Positions 23,801-30,674 of a DNA stretch of 37,027 nt are shown in pieces (the first letter of the stretch is position 1; every line of letters begins with the position of its first letter). Made by a program: the position numbers and the translations under genes. The stretch lies in the IMG/VR virus record IMGVR_UViG_2909303794_000007; one strand, written 5' to 3'. The DNA comes from a virus. Its lineage: Duplodnaviria; Heunggongvirae; Uroviricota; Caudoviricetes. The notes below the pieces were generated by a model. It did not search any database and had not been told where the DNA came from. It saw only the letters and a program-made list of their open reading frames with translations.

Positions 23801-23967
23801 CTGTTTTCTCTGCTGGCGCAGCAGGTGCCAGTTGTTCAGGCTGACGGATGGATTGTAAACCAGAACGACCAGAAAAAACAAAACCCGCCGAAGCGGGTTA
23901 AGTGCGGGTGCGTTGAGGATGCCTGACACATCAGCGGTGGCGAGGGATTTCTCCCCCGCCTGGTCTC

Positions 23968-24123
23968 TTACTCCTCAGGTTCGTAAGCTGTGAAGACAGC
24001 GACCTCCGTCTGGCCGGTTCGGATTCGTACCTCGCAGAGGTCTTTCCTCGTTACCAGTGCCGTCACTATGACGGTTAAACAGATGACGATCAGGGCGATT
24101 AACATCGCCTTTTGCTGCTTCAT
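23968..24123 (-). CDS. hok: Hok/Gef-family type I toxin
   Basis: MKQQKAMLIALIVICLTVIVTALVTRKDLCEVRIRTGQTEVAVFTAYEPEE matches the Hok family (transmembrane helix, then RKxLCExR...EVAAF). Confidence 0.75.
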   Translation of the reverse strand: MKQQKAMLIALIVICLTVIVTALVTRKDLCEVRIRTGQTEVAVFTAYEPEE

Positions 24124-24194
24124 AGCCTGCTTCTCCTGTGTAAGTTCACAGAGATATTGCAATTGCCTCCGGATAAGTAAGGGGAGATTGCACT

Positions 24195-25283
24195 ATGCAA
24201 ATGCAGCATCTGATGGTTGGCTATCCTAAGTACTACCAAACGGCCGATTATGCGTTGAGGCTTTCAGTGATGGCTGATATAGCAACAATGAGAATGAAGG
24301 CTCTGCACTTCTGGGATAAACACGGTATTTCTGCAGCTTCTGAAGCCTTTGGCGTGTCCTGCCGCACGCTTTACTGGTGGCGTCAGTTACTGAACAAGGA
24401 AGGACCTGAGGGGCTAATCCCGCACAGTAAGGCACCTCTGGTGCGACGAAAAAAACACTGGCATCCCGATGTGCTGAAAGAGATTCGACGCCTCAGGACA
24501 GAGCTGCCGAACCTCGGTAAAGAGCAGATTTTTGTTCGCCTGAAGCCCTGGTGCGAACAGCGCTATCTGGCCTGTCCGAGTGTTTCCACCATCGGCAGAA
24601 TGATCGCTGCCGCACATGATAAAATGCGGATGATACCTGTGCGTCTGGGATCGCGGGGGAAGGCACTGCTTGTCAAAAAGCGGTCTGCCAAACCCCGCAG
24701 GCCAAAGCACTACCGCCCGGTAAAGACAGGTGAGCTCATTGGGATGGACGCCATTGAGCTCAGAATGGGCGAACTGCGTCGCTATGTCATCACCATGATC
24801 GACGAATGCAGCAATTACGCGCTGGCGCTGGCTGTGCCGTCACTCAACAGTGATATCGTCAATCACTTCTTCAGCCGCGCAGCCCGGTTGTTCCCGGTCG
24901 GTATCAGCCAGATAATCACAGATAACGGAAAAGAGTTCCTGGGAAACTTCGACAAAACGCTGCAGGAAGCCGCTATCAAACACCTCTGGACCTATCCCTA
25001 CACGCCAAAAATGAACGCTATCTGTGAACGTTTTAACCGGACGTTAAGAGAGCAGTTTATTGAATTTAATGAGATTTTACTCTTTGAAGATCTGGCGCTA
25101 TTTAACCAGAAGCTGGCGGAATATCTGGTGCTGTATAACAGCAAAAGACCCCACAAGGCGCTCGCACTAATGACGCCCGTGGAATATATTTTAAAAGAGA
25201 ATAAAAATTGCAATATGTGGTGGACCCATACATCTCCTTGCCTTTCGGCACGTAAGAGGCTAACCTACGTTTGTGAAGCATAG
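24195..25283 (+). CDS. DDE-type transposase/integrase (rve superfamily, N-terminal HTH; IS481-like single-ORF layout)
   Basis: 362 aa; N-terminal HTH region, central ...IITDNGKEF... and C-terminal ...YNSKRPHKAL... typical of the integrase core domain. The only plus-strand gene in a minus-strand block. IS ends not identified. Confidence 0.65.
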   Translation: MQMQHLMVGYPKYYQTADYALRLSVMADIATMRMKALHFWDKHGISAASEAFGVSCRTLYWWRQLLNKEGPEGLIPHSKAPLVRRKKHWHPDVLKEIRRLRTELPNLGKEQIFVRLKPWCEQRYLACPSVSTIGRMIAAAHDKMRMIPVRLGSRGKALLVKKRSAKPRRPKHYRPVKTGELIGMDAIELRMGELRRYVITMIDECSNYALALAVPSLNSDIVNHFFSRAARLFPVGISQIITDNGKEFLGNFDKTLQEAAIKHLWTYPYTPKMNAICERFNRTLREQFIEFNEILLFEDLALFNQKLAEYLVLYNSKRPHKALALMTPVEYILKENKNCNMWWTHTSPCLSARKRLTYVCEA

Positions 25284-25689
25284 ATTGGGCCTCAGATTAA
25301 TGTTAAGCGTCTTGCAGGACGCGTAATGTTAACTGGGGCTTTTCTCTGTCTGCCTTACGGTGGCATGCCCGAGGCAGACAGCCTCAAGCACCCGCAGCAA
25401 TTCTACTTAACTCTCGCTTTACCGCAAACCGTTTTTACCCGATATGGGAATTCCCATATCGTAATGAATTCAGTTCCCTAGTCGATCCATCAAAAACACA
25501 ACCAGGCAGTAAACGCCCACAACAGCAACAACAGCCAGCGCACCTTCCATTGCCAGTGATATATCATCCGACATATTCCCTCCTTTGGTGTTAATCCCGG
25601 CGAACGTTTTTACCCTCACCGACAAATAACATATACTAAAAAAGCGATAGCCATAGCAACGCCTGTAATTGCAAATGCTTCAGGCCAGT

Positions 25690-26559
25690 TCATTGGCGCA
25701 CCTCCTGCGGCGGTTCTGGTAGAGGCATCCAGTGTGATGGTATCCACGACGCACCAGGTATTATCCACCCATCATTAGCGTCAGGATGCCCCGGGATGTA
25801 AGTCGCCCATTTCATTCGCCAGTCACCTTTCCTGCCAAAATCCCTGGCAACAAGAACGGCTGTTTTGGTATCCGGCATTCGCTCACTACAGCTTATCCAA
25901 CTATCCGGAGTTACCGGATAGTTGCCCGATAGTGCATTCTGCTCCAGTGATGCTTTTACAAACCACGCTGCCTGAACTATAACGCCATGAATCCAGCGCA
26001 AATCAGCATCGCGATCTTTCTTTTTCATCTTTTCGCCACTTAAGGCCTTGCTTATGTGGCTGCGTGCCAGGTCTTCATGTAATTCCTTCGCCTCCTCAAT
26101 GGTGAAACCACCAGGCAGAAGAGCCGGAGTTACCGGAGAGCTGGTTGACGCTTCCGGGATTTTCCGAAAATTATTGGTTGACGAATCTTTATTTTCCCGA
26201 AAGTTTCCGGACTGAAACATGGCTTCGCGGCAATCGTTCCAGCCTGTAGCGTATGCAGCCGCTTTGCTGCTGCCTTCAACTGGCGCATCCTGCCAATACA
26301 TTTCTTCCGGCACTATCGGCGCTGGAGGGGCGGCAAATAGATATCCGCCAAAGTCAGGAAGCTCTCTAATGGCCTGTACAAATTTTTGTTTGCCTACGTC
26401 AACCCCTAATGGGTAATGAGCTATAATCTTTGCCACCGGCTCTGCTTCCAGCGATGCCAGCGCAATCCGTGCCAGTTCCATTTGTTCACCACGGGTAAGC
26501 CCGTTTTCAAGCGGATTTTTAATGAACAATTCAATACGTTCTTTGGTAATAGTGGTCAT
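25690..26559 (-). CDS. Phage protein with C-terminal DUF551 domain
   Basis: 289 aa; C-terminal ...GWIIPGASWIPSHWMPLPEPP typical of DUF551. Confidence 0.6.
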   Translation of the reverse strand: MTTITKERIELFIKNPLENGLTRGEQMELARIALASLEAEPVAKIIAHYPLGVDVGKQKFVQAIRELPDFGGYLFAAPPAPIVPEEMYWQDAPVEGSSKAAAYATGWNDCREAMFQSGNFRENKDSSTNNFRKIPEASTSSPVTPALLPGGFTIEEAKELHEDLARSHISKALSGEKMKKKDRDADLRWIHGVIVQAAWFVKASLEQNALSGNYPVTPDSWISCSERMPDTKTAVLVARDFGRKGDWRMKWATYIPGHPDANDGWIIPGASWIPSHWMPLPEPPQEVRQ

Positions 26560-26569
26560 GTGTTACTCC

Positions 26570-26833
26570 TTAACCCGCAGTGCTTTCAACTGATGAGGGG
26601 AACAAAATCTTTTCATCAAACCCTGCATTCATATCATGAACAGCAACACACCAATCCATCGACGAACGATTATCAAGAGCCTCCATGATTTCATCCATGC
26701 GGCGTAGGTCATACAGGTAAATGCTTTTATCACCAATGGTGTAAAAGCCAATTTTTTTCGGTGATGGACAGCGATCAAGAACTTCCTGTAATTCGTTCAA
26801 CCATGCCCGTTCTTTTTTTGTCAAAGTTGCCAT
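26570..26833 (-). CDS. Hypothetical phage protein (start taken at MATLTKKERAWLNELQEVL...)
   Basis: ORF in the minus-strand early operon. Confidence 0.35.
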   Translation of the reverse strand: MATLTKKERAWLNELQEVLDRCPSPKKIGFYTIGDKSIYLYDLRRMDEIMEALDNRSSMDWCVAVHDMNAGFDEKILFPSSVESTAG

Positions 26834-27083
26834 ATCAGTTTTCCTTATACGGATTAATTTTATTGTGCAGTGTGTTGAATGACGCCCATACCACGTCGTT
26901 ATACAATTCAATAACTGGCTCAATTATTTTTCCGATTATCCAGACTAGGATTAACGGGGATATCGGTATCATCAACACGATAAACAGAATGAGAAACAGA
27001 AATTCTGTTGTTCTACTCTTTCGCGGATATTTTTCTAAATAATGTGACCATTCATTACCGCCCTTTCGGGCGGCCTCCTGACA

Positions 27084-27296
27084 TTAATCGTTGTGATAAC
27101 TCATAGCTTCATTTGCAGCATCAACTGGATCAACCTCCCTCCAGCAATAATTTGGGTCGACTCCTTCAGGCGTCCACGGTTCTAATTCATTTTTTGCCGC
27201 ATTCTCATCGCCAGTAATTTTAAAAATCTGCTCAGAGAATTTTCTTGCCCACTCGTTATATTTTTCCGCATTAATGGCTTTCTGTGTATTTAACAT
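27084..27296 (-). CDS. Hypothetical phage protein (70 aa)
   Basis: ORF in the operon; acidic small protein. Confidence 0.35.
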   Translation of the reverse strand: MLNTQKAINAEKYNEWARKFSEQIFKITGDENAAKNELEPWTPEGVDPNYCWREVDPVDAANEAMSYHND

Positions 27297-27346
27297 AAAT
27301 ACACCTCCAGTTAAGGATTAGATTTTATTTACAGCGCTAAATTTAT

Positions 27347-27703
27347 TTATTCAGTTCTGGATTTTGTCACCCTGCGTATCCGCGCTTTCGCGTTACGCTC
27401 AATCTGAATTAACTTTTCTATATTTTTCCGCCTTTCCTGTTCCTCCTGGCGCAATAGCTTTACATCATCTGCCAGCCTAGTTTCTCTTTTCGCCACAGAG
27501 AGCATCCAGTCAAATGGCTCCACAACTGCACCGCAGATTTTACAGCGGACCTGACGCTCTTTTTCGTCAACCCGGACAGAGGCGTGATGACAATATGGTC
27601 TTTCCGATGGCTCATAAAGAAAATTAACCTGATTACGAGGGTCATCCTCTTTTACCGGAAATAAAACGATATTGCTTAACTCATCCTCTGGTTTTATTTC
27701 CAT
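27347..27703 (-). CDS. Hypothetical protein with a Cys-rich zinc-ribbon-like motif (118 aa)
   Basis: ...PYCHHASVRVDEKERQVRCKICGAVVEP...; overlaps the upstream gene by 23 nt. Confidence 0.4.
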   Translation of the reverse strand: MEIKPEDELSNIVLFPVKEDDPRNQVNFLYEPSERPYCHHASVRVDEKERQVRCKICGAVVEPFDWMLSVAKRETRLADDVKLLRQEEQERRKNIEKLIQIERNAKARIRRVTKSRTE

Positions 27704-28142
27704 GCTCCTCTCCTTTGATGCGAATGCCAGCGACGCGTAATGCGTGTTCTAGGTCAATCAGGTAAAGCCAACTGCCATTTTCTTTAGGTATCATGACATG
27801 TCGCTCATCTGCATTTATCGGGTGTCCATATCGAAGGTCGTAGCGAGTCGGTAATTGAACTTCCCGCGCATCCAGTTCAGCAATACGCTTGCTCCCATCA
27901 GAGATAACGCCTTCGTAATACTCACGCTGCTCGTTGAGTTGTGATTTTGCTTCTTCCAGTCCATCCAGCAAACCAGCGATAATATCCGCTTCCCGATGAC
28001 GGATATGACGCTTAAACGCAGCAAGAGCCGCATCACAATCCTGTTCAGCATTTGGGCTGTCCGGGGTAGCCTGATACCACGCCAGCGTCGACTGATAGTT
28101 TTGTGCTGCCTCACGAAGCGCCTCATAGTTAACCTCTCTCAT
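27681..28142 (-). CDS. Hypothetical phage protein (153 aa)
   Basis: ORF whose start overlaps the stop of the DUF4406-like gene by 4 nt (28139-28142). Confidence 0.4.
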   Translation of the reverse strand: MREVNYEALREAAQNYQSTLAWYQATPDSPNAEQDCDAALAAFKRHIRHREADIIAGLLDGLEEAKSQLNEQREYYEGVISDGSKRIAELDAREVQLPTRYDLRYGHPINADERHVMIPKENGSWLYLIDLEHALRVAGIRIKGEEHGNKTRG

Positions 28143-28435
28143 TGAGCCACCTCCTGATAAATCACCGCATGCCCCAGTTTCTCCGCCAGTGCCAGCTCTG
28201 CCTTAGCGCCCGCTGACCGCTGCCAGCCATTCAGCATGTAAATCGCATCCACACAACGAATCATTGCCATGCAAATATCCATGTAGTGCGGCTGTGTCAG
28301 CCCGTCCGGAAGTACTGCCGGGTTTAAGACGGTATGCCCTTCCCGTTTCAGTTCCTCTTCCACCTTGTGAAATGCCTCACGGTTGAAATTTTCATATCCC
28401 GTCATTGGACCGGCAATATAAACTCTCACCCTCAC
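28139..28435 (-). CDS. DUF4406-like protein (nucleoside 2-deoxyribosyltransferase-like fold)
   Basis: 98 aa; MRVRVYIAGPMTGYENFNREAF...NGWQRSAGAKAELALAEKLG, the YIAGP-type motif of this family. Confidence 0.55.
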   Translation of the reverse strand: MRVRVYIAGPMTGYENFNREAFHKVEEELKREGHTVLNPAVLPDGLTQPHYMDICMAMIRCVDAIYMLNGWQRSAGAKAELALAEKLGHAVIYQEVAQ

Positions 28436-28854
28436 TCCATCACCTCCTGAAAGTTTCCCCGATAGAACGCCAGCACACGCTGCATAACTTCGCTCCTCCT
28501 GCTCTCACGACAAATTATGTTCTGGTGCCTGTCGTAGCGGCGTATTTCGCCGTCTGGTAACGACCAGATAAGGTCCGGATCAACCACTGCAGGTTTCTTC
28601 AGCTTTGCCCTTGAGAGCTTTTTACGGGTATTTTGCCAGTCCTTACGCGCCTGTTCAGACGGGAATAACCCGTAACCAGAGTTGTATACATCGCCACTGG
28701 CAACCAGCTCTCTGGCCAGAACGCTCATCAGATATCTTGTTGCCCCAGTTTTAGCTTCCAGTTGTCGTAACGTCTCGCGCCCACTCTGGCGTACGAGTTC
28801 AAGAACCTGCCCTTTAATTTTTTCCCGCTCTTCTTGTGTAAAAACTTTTGCCAC
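28432..28854 (-). CDS. Hypothetical protein (140 aa) in the position usually taken by a helicase loader
   Basis: ORF directly downstream of the O-like gene, overlapping the next gene by 4 nt; no recognisable ATPase motifs. Confidence 0.35.
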   Translation of the reverse strand: MAKVFTQEEREKIKGQVLELVRQSGRETLRQLEAKTGATRYLMSVLARELVASGDVYNSGYGLFPSEQARKDWQNTRKKLSRAKLKKPAVVDPDLIWSLPDGEIRRYDRHQNIICRESRRSEVMQRVLAFYRGNFQEVME

Positions 28855-28894
28855 AAGCCCTCCTGAAAATTACCTCATGACCAGAAATTAACAC

Positions 28895-29971
28895 TTACCC
28901 CCTGAAGCCCGGCGGAATTTCGTTATCCGGTTCAGAAATATGATTCACACAACGCTGGTTGTTCGTGCCGCTTACCGGGAGCAACCAGGGGTTCTCAAAA
29001 TTCCGGTCCGGTCCAAAAAACGTCGTCGCTCGCTGAACAAATTCCGTTCCCGTTTTCCCGGTAGCCGCCAAGTATCTTGCGTAACGCCTCACGCCATCCA
29101 GCATGGCCTCTGGTGGCACCCCCTCGCGTAATCTGGCCTTCCAGGCACTGAAAGCGGATTTCTTCGGGTTTGCCCCAGCACGCAACGGGTACTCCCGCCA
29201 GACCTGTTCGAACACATCCGGATAATCCACTCGTCCCACAGACTGACCGGTGTTTTCCGGGACTACCCGATCGGCTTCCCGCTGAATGGCGGAATCGGCT
29301 TCAGGCTGCTGAAGTTGGTGTGATTGCTCCTGCCTTGCGGTCATCACCTGCTGCACAGCGCCCGAATCGGCTTTCAGCGCATACGCTGAATCGGCTTCCG
29401 GTGTCGTGCCTGCTGGCTGACCAGGATTGACGGTCTGAACATCCCCTGCCTGGTTCGTGGCGTTTTTTACGCCATGGACCATAGTGTTTTGATCTTCTTG
29501 ATCTGTATCTTTATCTGTATCTTTATCTGTCGTGACTCGTCGTGACATGTGCGTGACATTTCGTGACTCGCCGTGACAATCGCCATTTTGTTCCCGCTTT
29601 CTTTCCCTCTCTCGCTGCGCCCTCTTGCGCTCTGCCGGAGATTTTGCGGTTTGCGAAATATTGCCGTTGTCCTCTTTCAGCACCTGGCGTTTTTCCCATC
29701 CAGTGATTAAATCACCATCAAGTACCCGCCCCTGCATCGTCTGCAAAATTGAATCAATTACCTCTTCTGTCACGTCGAGCGCACTTGCCAAATCTTCTGT
29801 CGTGACATCAATGTGACCTCGCGTGACATTTCGTGACGCGCTCACCAGGAGGTGGATATACACTGCCATCACTGTTGCAATTGGCTGCCCTGACACCCTG
29901 GCAATTGTTCGCCACTTAGGGTCATTTGGCATGTCATGCCATAATCTGAGCCAGGCGTTAGCCATACTCAC
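28895..29971 (-). CDS. Replication initiator / replisome organiser (O-like, YdaU-type N-terminus)
   Basis: 358 aa; N-terminus MSMANAWLRLWHDMPNDPKWRTIARVSG...; two iteron clusters inside the gene; sits downstream of the cro and ydaT-like genes. Confidence 0.65.
   Translation of the reverse strand: MSMANAWLRLWHDMPNDPKWRTIARVSGQPIATVMAVYIHLLVSASRNVTRGHIDVTTEDLASALDVTEEVIDSILQTMQGRVLDGDLITGWEKRQVLKEDNGNISQTAKSPAERKRAQRERERKREQNGDCHGESRNVTHMSRRVTTDKDTDKDTDQEDQNTMVHGVKNATNQAGDVQTVNPGQPAGTTPEADSAYALKADSGAVQQVMTARQEQSHQLQQPEADSAIQREADRVVPENTGQSVGRVDYPDVFEQVWREYPLRAGANPKKSAFSAWKARLREGVPPEAMLDGVRRYARYLAATGKTGTEFVQRATTFFGPDRNFENPWLLPVSGTNNQRCVNHISEPDNEIPPGFRG
29531..29840. repeat. Putative origin: two clusters of 10-11-bp-phased (C)GTGAC iterons inside the initiator gene
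   Basis: CGTGAC at 29531, 29541, 29552, 29562, 29572 and GTGAC at 29801, 29812, 29822, 29832. Confidence 0.55.
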
Positions 29972-30036
29972 CTCTTCTGATACCGAATCTTTTTACTCAC
30001 GAGTTGCCGGAAGCGATTCGATATGGCTATTGTCAG

Positions 30037-30462
30037 TCAATGAACTGCCACAGCATTTCCTGCCGGGCCACCACGGTTCATCTGATTGAAACCGGCGATT
30101 GCCACTGCTACAAAATCATCAGCGTCTCTCACCAGTCGCTCCCGCGTCTCCACCAGCTCCCGAAAATAAGCTGAACTGTGGCTGCGCATTCTGGCCACCA
30201 GCAAAGGTGGCATTGCCTTTTCGATCGCTGGTAACAACGCCTGAATTTTTTCAACTGCATCAGGGGTGTCTTTCTCTACCCAGCGGAAAATTTTCTGGGT
30301 ATTACGGGCTAGGGCTTCCGGATGGCTGTCGTCATACAGTTCCGGGAACGTCATTCCCAGCTCGAAATACGCTTTGGTAATTTTCGCAGCCGGTACTTTT
30401 TCGCCGTCCGGATGCGCCCAGACATTCATCGCCATGCGGATGTGTTCATGCTTGATTTTCAT
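30037..30462 (-). CDS. YdaT-like protein (cII position)
   Basis: 141 aa starting MKIKHEHI..., as I recall for Rac YdaT; immediately downstream of the cro-like gene. Confidence 0.5.
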   Translation of the reverse strand: MKIKHEHIRMAMNVWAHPDGEKVPAAKITKAYFELGMTFPELYDDSHPEALARNTQKIFRWVEKDTPDAVEKIQALLPAIEKAMPPLLVARMRSHSSAYFRELVETRERLVRDADDFVAVAIAGFNQMNRGGPAGNAVAVH

Positions 30463-30674
30463 GAATCATTCTTTCCTTCGTTTGAGGTGCTATCCTGCTT
30501 CTTGTAAAGTTCTGGGTTGTATTTCAATTCACCGTTAGTAATTTCATCCAGTTCCATTGCGCGAAGTTTGGGAATAACTGCTTTCCACCGCACAACAGCC
30601 ACATGTGAAATTCCAAGAGCCTCAGCTACTAGTCGCTTTTTTTTGAAATAGCGCAGAACATCATCTTTGAACAT
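30459..30674 (-). CDS. cro: Cro-like (YdaS-type) HTH regulator
   Basis: 71 aa with HTH (RLVAEALGISHVAVVRW); divergent from the repressor gene. Confidence 0.7.
   Translation of the reverse strand: MFKDDVLRYFKKKRLVAEALGISHVAVVRWKAVIPKLRAMELDEITNGELKYNPELYKKQDSTSNEGKNDS

Follow-up and report, generated by a model that had tools for sequence, protein, structure and literature searches.

The window analysed here is a 37,027-nt stretch of viral DNA (Caudoviricetes; IMG/VR record IMGVR_UViG_2909303794_000007) that carries six small genes, ORF1 to ORF6, on its minus strand between a replication initiator gene (rep) and a DUF551 gene. It matches, at 99.9% identity, a lambdoid prophage adjoining yccA in enterohaemorrhagic E. 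coli (EHEC)-type E. coli (O111, O121 and related strains), and RefSeq carries the same genes in the prophage of strain 13E0780, where the region is 99.9% identical. Among 5426 complete E. coli genomes, positions 25600-30000 are essentially intact in 74, and parts of this segment are present in 4633. The evidence set out below makes it probable that a lambda/Rac-like prophage carries here the distal part of its early-right (PR-type) operon, where independently exchangeable accessory cassettes follow a Ren-like gene and an initiator that operates without a phage-encoded helicase loader.

Gene content of the locus

The genes of the leftward unit, all on the minus strand, are as follows.

30459-30674, minus strand: Cro/YdaS-like gene at the head of the unit (RefSeq name: Cro/CI family regulator)
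30037-30462, minus strand: YdaT/cII-like gene (PF06254 YdaT; phrog_163 'CII-like')
28895-29971, minus strand: replication initiator (rep), 358 aa, upstream of the array (phrog_3729, E = 2e-257)
28432-28854, minus strand: ORF1, 140 aa, DUF977/Ren-like, also annotated LygF (PF06163; phrog_142)
28139-28435, minus strand: ORF2, 98 aa, DUF4406 (PF14359; AF2 model)
27681-28142, minus strand: ORF3, 153 aa, Ead/Ea22-like coiled-coil protein (PF13935; phrog_250)
27347-27703, minus strand: ORF4, 118 aa, probable Cys3His zinc ribbon and long helix (phrog_1621; AF2 model)
27084-27296, minus strand: ORF5, 70 aa, small acidic protein (phrog_4659)
26835-27051, minus strand: DUF4014 gene, frameshifted (phrog_1832; PF13198)
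26570-26833, minus strand: ORF6, 87 aa from ATG or 117 aa from an upstream TTG (phrog_1714)
25690-26559, minus strand: DUF551 gene, 289 aa, next in the same array (PF04448, E = 6.7e-19)

The hok/sok locus, a DUF968 gene, RusA and Q follow 3' of DUF551.

The coordinates and sizes of the six minus-strand open reading frames (ORFs) are all as the initial annotation gave them. Each has a strong PHROG match (E = 1e-42 to 1e-56), and dN/dS values of 0.03-0.25 were obtained for ORF1, ORF2, ORF4, ORF5 and ORF6 against diverged copies in other phages and prophages. On these two grounds the six ORFs are judged to be real genes. A seventh, the DUF4014 gene, lies in the gap between ORF5 and ORF6 and had been overlooked. 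All genes of the array already belong to known Pfam or PHROG families and are present in RefSeq; the array is not a new system.

Searches of NCBIfam with ORF1-ORF6 gave no matches, sequence searches of PDB with each ORF returned chance-level matches only, and Rfam detected no RNA families inside the six-gene region. When alternative-frame and antisense ORFs were compared with PHROGs, only 26761-27042 on the plus strand, opposite DUF4014, found a match (phrog_20982, of unknown function; E = 2e-27). The plus-strand ORF is probably not a genuine gene but a shadow ORF, and phrog_20982 itself is likely built from such ORFs.

It could be argued that the prophage is decaying here and that its ORFs have lost their function. 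The DUF4014 gene is frameshifted, an IS481-family element splits the nearby hok/sok locus, and chimeric and truncated versions of the array genes occur in other genomes. However, five of the six ORFs have the low dN/dS values given above, their frames and ribosome-binding sites are intact, and deposited phage genomes carry these genes too. Decay of the array is therefore regarded as extremely improbable.

Extent of the probable transcription unit

The layout is that of a coupled operon. All genes lie on one strand, their stop and start codons overlap or abut, and there is no internal minus-strand terminator-like site. The stop of ORF1 and the start of ORF2 share GTGA (28432-28435), the stop of ORF2 and the start of ORF3 share ATGA (28139-28142), and ORF4 starts 23 nt inside the end of ORF3 (27681-27703). 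These overlaps, and the tight packing of which they are part, are present as the initial annotation had described. Gaps of 1 nt and 10 nt remain ahead of ORF6 (from the DUF4014 stop to the ORF6 ATG) and of the DUF551 ATG, respectively. A Shine-Dalgarno-like motif precedes every ORF start, for example AGGAGGG at the GTG start of ORF1 and GGAGGT at the ATG of ORF5.

The same annotation had treated the six genes as an operon of their own, but nothing delimits them. The ribosome-binding site of DUF551, AAGGAG, overlaps the stop codon of ORF6, so the array runs on past 26570. A scan against shuffled sequence found no promoter- or terminator-like sites above chance that bound the six genes, and the first minus-strand terminator-like site downstream (25519-25503) lies beyond DUF551. 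By their layout the six genes belong instead to a longer cro > YdaT/cII > rep > DUF551 unit. Transcription from the cro-like gene most likely reads through the YdaT/cII-like gene, the initiator, ORF1-ORF6 and DUF551, and the overlapping or abutting stop and start codons would let ribosomes pass from gene to gene.

The replication initiator and the helicase loader

No member of the P-like, DnaC/IstB or DnaD-like loader families was found among ORF1-ORF6 in Pfam, PHROGs or NCBIfam. As a positive control, the P-like gene of phage Rac-SA53 was readily detected in both Pfam and PHROGs (PF06992, E = 4.6e-16; phrog_109, E = 2e-54). The initial annotation had likewise recognized no DnaC- or lambda P-type gene among the six, and the Pfam and PHROGs searches agree with it. 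It had also regarded a loader as expected at this position, which is not necessarily the case: the deposited phages HannyBb and Tritos have the same rep > DUF977 layout without one.

The initiator is replisome-organiser-like in its N-terminal part and DnaD-like/primosomal in its C-terminal half, and it ends in a DnaT-like tail. Residues 130-358 match phrog_1701 'DnaD-like helicase loader' (E = 2e-62) and also a 'primosomal protein' PHROG. The final 24-25 aa match the DnaT C-terminal tail (…SEPDNEIPPGFRG; SEPDxxIPPGFRG) as represented in NCBIfam PRK02854 and in PDB entries 6aep, 2ru8 and 9zbt. The C-terminus of rep, SGTNNQRCVNHISEPDNEIPPGFRG (28895-28969, the last 25 codons), is 60% identical to the DnaT tail over 25 aa; the DnaT query for this BLASTP comparison was an E. 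coli sequence, the C-terminus of which agrees with the PDB alignment. Similarity of rep to DnaT beyond the tail, or to Rac YdaU, was not found.

Iteron-like repeats lie within the rep gene at 29496-29578, where the 12-mer TCTTTATCTGTA occurs three times in tandem and is followed by three 18-mers with TCGTGAC. The stretch encodes a low-complexity linker of rep, TDKDTDKDTD, and is a probable replication origin. By means of its DnaD-like half and DnaT-like tail, the initiator would bring the host primosome and DnaB-DnaC to the iterons in its own gene, a scheme in which no phage helicase loader would be needed. Judged from domain content, replication is probably loader-free in this manner, and the rep > DUF977 layout that HannyBb and Tritos share without a loader fits direct recruitment of the host primosome. 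The DnaT-like tail may mimic a docking peptide for a host partner. The 'missing' loader would thus be a property of this type of replication module, with its DnaD-like half and DnaT tail, and not a gap for the small ORFs to fill.

ORF1, which follows the initiator, matches PF06163 over residues 1-136 of 140 (102.2 bits; cut-off 22.1). It also matches phrog_142 'Ren-like exclusion protein' (E = 1.3e-45), the family that lambda Ren itself matches (E = 1.6e-41). Direct BLASTP between ORF1 and lambda Ren aligns the C-terminus only (E = 4e-5). In its N-terminal part ORF1 also has a match to phrog_2391 'DNA binding protein', and winged-helix DNA-binding domains were the top matches in profile searches with DUF977 (PMC2686095); a winged helix is suggested for this part of the protein. 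The dN/dS of ORF1 is 0.12-0.18. All DUF977 homologues found are at least 85% identical, too shallow a set for a useful alignment.

A DUF977/Ren gene comes directly after the replication gene or genes in the window, lambda (O-P-ren), phage 689R5, HannyBb and Tritos, and the order in Rac-SA53 is YdaU-type initiator, P-like loader, DUF1627, DUF977. ORF1 had been counted among the genes of unknown function. It is no anonymous gene, since it shares phrog_142 with lambda Ren and trails the replication gene in several unrelated modules. By profile membership ORF1 is a homologue of lambda Ren and should be annotated as Ren-like, and it belongs with the replication module as a conserved companion of the replication gene.

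The position of ORF1, in the place of lambda P, invites the alternative that it is a divergent helicase loader replacing P or DnaC. Its adjacency to the 3' side of the initiator is kept in several phages, no other loader was found, and Thomason et al. describe lambda ren as 'likely involved in DNA replication' and report that Rex proteins contact O and Ren in two-hybrid assays. However, lambda ren comes after P, and the DUF977 gene of Rac-SA53 comes after a P-like loader. DUF977/Ren thus coexists with P-type loaders and is not a substitute for one. ORF1 also has no ATPase or P-like match and gives winged-helix/DNA-binding profile matches instead, which makes a loader role very unlikely. The initial annotation had named assignment to ordinary replication functions as the result that would count against its reading of the six genes; such an assignment holds in part for ORF1, as a Ren-like companion of the replication module, but not for ORF2-ORF6.

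Mosaicism of the accessory genes

When the array was compared by BLAST with six related loci, similarity broke at 26837, 27056, 27304, 27731-27738, 28099-28150 and 28431. Each of these breakpoints coincides with a gene boundary or lies no more than a few tens of bases from one. The sub-blocks that they define differ in abundance, as seen in the numbers of complete E. coli genomes that carry at least 80% of each block.

DUF977-DUF4406 block: 277/5426 genomes
ORF3-ORF4 block: 552/5426 genomes
ORF5-DUF4014-ORF6 block: 400/5426 genomes
Whole array: 74/5426 genomes

Parts of the array are also found in other settings. An ORF4-ORF5 block is located in the pL-side 'ea' region of the Stx2a phage ArgO145, and an Edwardsiella prophage carries a DUF4406 gene beside Ead_Ea22 and Eai genes near its integrase. 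After DUF977, HannyBb has different genes and Tritos has no such array at all. These differences in content identify the slot behind the Ren-like gene as a variable cargo site equivalent to nin, and the proposal of a nin-equivalent slot for accessory genes at this position, made in the initial annotation, is borne out.

Homologues of ORF4 include chimeric proteins (P0004, P0008, P0040, P0041, P0015 and P0120) in which it is joined to an Ea22-type N-terminus or to fragments of DUF977, DUF1133 or DUF4406. P0004 and P0008 are in-frame fusions with both the N-terminus and the coiled coil of an Ea22-type protein ahead of ORF4; in P0040 just a short N-terminal piece precedes it. Such chimeric ORFs indicate that recombination or deletion joints also fall inside the genes of the array.

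By these sequence comparisons the six genes are a mosaic of independently recombining blocks and not one unit or machine. ORF2-ORF6, the broken DUF4014 gene and DUF551 would be 'ea/nin'-type cassettes of the kind that move between the pL and pR early operons of lambdoid phages.

ORF2 and the DUF4406 fold

ORF2 matches PF14359 (DUF4406) over residues 4-93 (E = 1.9e-37; 128 bits, cut-off 22). An AlphaFold2 (AF2) model built from 47 sequences has a pLDDT of 91.4 and a pTM of 0.85. Foldseek searches of PDB with this model recovered nucleoside 2-deoxyribosyltransferases (NDTs; TMq 0.75-0.78, probability 1.00), MilB (TMq 0.77-0.80; BcmB also matched) and human DNPH1 (0.68-0.74). The Pfam match and the predicted fold agree with the initial annotation, which had called one of the six genes DUF4406-like with an NDT-like fold. 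We are confident, on the strength of the model, that ORF2 has a flavodoxin-like beta-alpha-beta fold of the NDT/DNPH1/MilB type. As a bona fide NDT (PF05014), ORF2 was considered and rejected, with a profile score below the cut-off and the C-terminal third of NDTs absent.

The motif of ORF2 consists of an N-terminal Tyr6 and Ser74-x-Gly76-x-x-x-Glu80. In DUF4406 representatives that are 42-59% identical to ORF2, conservation of Y6, S74, G76 and E80 is 90% or more, and the dN/dS of ORF2 is 0.06-0.10. The spacing of Y6 and E80 resembles that of Tyr7 and Glu88, the pair mutated in PDB entries of the C. thermalis NDT; judged by spacing, the two pairs may be equivalent. ORF2 would bind a nucleoside monophosphate and cleave its N-glycosidic bond via the conserved Glu80. 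In viral structure predictions the ORF2 fold is fused to dATP/dGTP diphosphohydrolase domains, and PHROGs tie the fold to a MazG-like family. Both associations fit action on nucleoside monophosphates.

DUF4406 is a very large family of minimal NDT-fold proteins (about 95 aa), with 18,167 clusters at 50% identity matching its profile. Comparison of the family sequence profile with PDB detected no solved structure, Pfam found no domains in the extensions of the ten longest top DUF4406 representatives, and a full-text search of the literature on DUF4406 returned incidental mentions only. The idea that phages deploy DUF4406 as a nucleotide N-glycosidase against their host or against rival phages is doubtful. 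If it were true, the target might be a particular (deoxy)nucleoside monophosphate, a modified nucleotide belonging to a competitor or an immune signal derived from a nucleotide, and DUF4406 fused to MazG or to a dATP/dGTP diphosphohydrolase could perform the second step in a two-step destruction of deoxynucleoside triphosphates. DUF4406 is the one component of the array that might repay biochemical study, because it is abundant, confidently folded and without an assigned substrate.

ORF3 and ORF4

ORF3 matches PF13935 (Ead/Ea22; 43.6 bits, cut-off 27) and phrog_250 (E = 9e-42). Aligned with lambda Ea22 it shows 40% identity across 118 aa (E = 5e-17); the central coiled-coil segments of the two are nearly the same, and the C-terminal parts differ. 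The last 17 aa of ORF3 are identical at 16 of 17 positions to the Ea22-like gp18 of phage ArgO145. The start of ORF4 lies within the end of ORF3, and the same junction is kept in ArgO145 behind a different Ea22-like gene. A match of ORF3 to PF03888 (RseB/MucB) scores 23.4 bits (cut-off 22.3) and covers only 51 of the 178 profile positions. The PGAP name 'RseB domain-containing protein' is probably misleading, and ORF3 is a homologue of lambda Ea22. Passages in two reports state that ea22 favours lysogeny (PMC7093339, PMC10834534), and ORF3 would act as an Ea22-type coiled-coil oligomer that affects the lysis-lysogeny decision.

ORF4 matches phrog_1621 (E = 1.4e-55) and has homologues in 150 clusters, from Enterobacterales only. 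In 42 homologues C38, H40, C54 and C57 are invariant, as are many positions in the helix motif LRxEExxRRxNIEKLIQIERNAKARIRR, and dN/dS is 0.07-0.11. These ligands account for the zinc-ribbon Cys cluster that the initial annotation had noted in one ORF. The AF2 model (pLDDT 76) has an N-terminus of low confidence, a small two-hairpin ribbon with strands at 43-46 and 51-54, and a single, partly basic helix of 55 residues (63-117). The match to the TFIIB-type zinc ribbon PF08271, at 21.5 bits, is below the cut-off of 29. Because of the long helix, the model gave no useful global match to PDB in Foldseek, which returned only non-significant zinc-ribbon fragments (best, a TFIIB ribbon, E = 0.4). 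The zinc ribbon of ORF4, possibly dimerized by the long helix, would bind nucleic acid or a host protein. The Ea22-ORF4 fusions described above are a weak hint that ORF4 may work with ORF3.

ORF5, DUF4014, ORF6 and DUF551

ORF5 and ORF6 match, over their full lengths, the PHROGs phrog_4659 (E = 5.8e-50) and phrog_1714 (E = 9.5e-51), respectively. Both PHROGs are without annotation, and sequence searches of PDB found no relative of either protein. ORF5 is present in only eight deposited phage records, mostly of Stx2a phages that include ArgO145 and Ro157c2YLVW. ORF6 was found by tblastn in 81 phage records, including Salmonella, Klebsiella, Serratia, Aeromonas, Vibrio and Yersinia phages, and has a dN/dS of 0.03. 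The two proteins would be small binders of host or phage proteins.

Alignment to an intact copy in L006, one of the near-identical prophages, places the frameshift in the DUF4014 gene at a change from A7 to A5 in a poly-A run at about 27026-27032. The downstream frame matches PF13198 (E = 3.5e-23), and RefSeq flags the gene as 'frameshifted' in the identical prophage of strain 13E0780. The pattern points to inactivation, by slippage in the run, of a small membrane protein, for which PHROGs gives the text 'released from the phage upon host infection'.

A GC hairpin, GCCGCCC-GAAA-GGGCGGU, occupies 27057-27074 (within 27057-27079) on the minus strand, with an AGGAGG motif on one side and the start codon of DUF4014 on the other. 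Its 61-nt context has a folding energy of -19.7 kcal/mol (z = -3.1), and none of 200 shuffled sequences folds as well. The hairpin is not a typical terminator because no T-run follows it. Its folding would bring the ribosome-binding site nearer to the DUF4014 ATG; alternatively, it may be an RNA-stability element.

DUF551 is a single intact ORF of 289 aa in the window, and PGAP annotates a short DUF551 gene with pseudogene fragments in near-identical prophages (L002, L006). Separate PHROGs cover its first 120 aa, which suggests that modules have been fused in this protein.

Anti-defence and the coherence of the array

The initial annotation had presented the region as a hotspot for anti-defence and host-takeover genes. 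Nothing found here shows such a role for these genes. In its strongest form, the proposal would make the six genes a coherent island whose products act jointly against host immunity. The proteins are small, early-expressed and encoded in a variable slot, and the NDT/TIR-related fold of ORF2 is one that nucleotide-based conflict systems employ. Lambda Ren is an established antagonist of Rex exclusion. The only experimental lead comes from an overexpression screen in which Rac ydaW was among the blockers of the retron-Sen2 toxin RcaT (bioRxiv 10.1101/2020.06.22.160242), a result that would bear on ORF1 only if the K-12 ydaW product is related to it. The 'ydaW' label in Rac-SA53 is on the DUF1627 gene, and its DUF977 gene is called lygF.

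Set against joint action is the independent assortment of the genes and the fact that the slot may hold none of these cassettes. There was no significant PADLOC match, although that library covers defence and not anti-defence, and the six RefSeq protein accessions appear in no paper in a full-text search. The passages on ea22 cited above tie Ea22 homologues to the choice between lysis and lysogeny rather than to immunity. A coordinated anti-defence island is not plausible, and we consider this account of the six genes unlikely. An anti-defence role for at least one gene of the array is plausible, although on balance we would not assume it.

A mosaic of separately exchanged cassettes in a PR-type operon with a loader-free initiator remains the preferred interpretation, and several observations weigh against parts of it. 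The DUF977-DUF4406 (277 genomes) and ORF3-ORF4 (552 genomes) blocks fairly often travel as pairs, and some pairwise functional links among these genes are conceivable. The Ea22-ORF4 fusions, which are rare and form clusters of one member each, could be artefacts of deletion. PR itself was not detected by the promoter scan, so co-transcription is argued from gene layout. The similarity between rep and DnaT is limited to 25 residues, and a published preprimosome study does not define the binding role of the DnaT tail. With regard to ORF2, the PF05014 score is below the cut-off (15.2 versus 28.8 bits), the protein has 98 aa and is about 50 residues shorter than true NDTs (the NDT matches have 133-159 aa), and D53, its Asp in mid-chain, lacks conservation in the family at large. 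ORF2 could be a binding protein instead of an enzyme.

The neighbouring hok/sok locus

Downstream of DUF551, an IS481-family insertion sequence parts the hok ORF from its sok/mok leader.

23968-24162, minus strand: hok
25227-25393, minus strand: sok (Rfam RF01794, 112 bits)
24138-25232: IS481-family element, 1,095 bp, flanked by a 6-bp target duplication and inserted some 10 nt ahead of the hokD start codon

The transposase ORF (24195-25283) runs out of the element into flanking DNA, and in E. coli Z1323PEC0014 a transposase gene is likewise located between hokD and the DUF551 side. A match to an isrK-like small RNA just downstream of hok (23878-23959, minus strand) is weak, at 27 bits against a gathering score of 50.

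Comparison with known systems

Taken as a whole, the region represents routine lambdoid mosaicism. Two points of interest remain, namely the substrate of the DUF4406 fold and the mimicry of the DnaT tail suggested for the initiator. In having its probable origin inside the initiator gene, the window parallels lambda, whose origin is located within O. ORF1 and lambda ren share a PHROG, a place immediately after the replication genes and the C-terminal motif N(I/L)(I/V)x(R/K)ECRxSxxMxRVLAxY. They differ in that Ren has 96 aa and ORF1 140 aa, pairwise similarity is confined to about 20 residues, and ORF1 comes after the initiator without an intervening P gene.

The NDT superfamily comprises NDTs, DNPH1/Rcl and the MilB/BcmB CMP N-glycosidases. 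The ORF2 model superposes on its members at TMq of about 0.68-0.80, and the N-terminal Tyr and the Ser-x-Gly-x-x-x-Glu motif are conserved in ORF2. In contrast to the 130-160 aa of these proteins, ORF2 has 98 aa and is without the C-terminal segment.

A parallel in regulatory and replication genes is the Rac early-right region (ydaS-ydaT-ydaU-ydaV-ydaW) as carried by phage Rac-SA53. Both have YdaS/YdaT-like regulators, an initiator with DnaT-related sequence, DUF977 and DUF4406, and the DUF977-DUF4406 block of Rac-SA53 is 89-91% identical to that of the window. However, Rac-SA53 has an initiator with DUF1376 and DnaT domains, a P-like loader and a DUF1627 gene, whereas the initiator of the window belongs to phrog_3729 and has no significant full-length similarity to that of Rac-SA53.

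The cassettes themselves resemble the ea region between exo and xis of lambda, P22 and Stx phages. ORF3 is homologous to lambda Ea22 over its N-terminal and coiled-coil parts, and ORF4 and ORF5 adjoin Ea22-like genes in the pL-side region of ArgO145. Here, in contrast, the cassettes are found in the PR operon after the replication genes, at the nin position, and not between exo and xis. In lambda this place, from the replication genes to Q, is taken by the nin region (ren to Q), and the two regions share tight packing, overlapping codons, and content that is dispensable and variable. The window differs from lambda nin in that NinB-NinH are absent from the six ORFs, with RusA and the DUF968 gene located further downstream.

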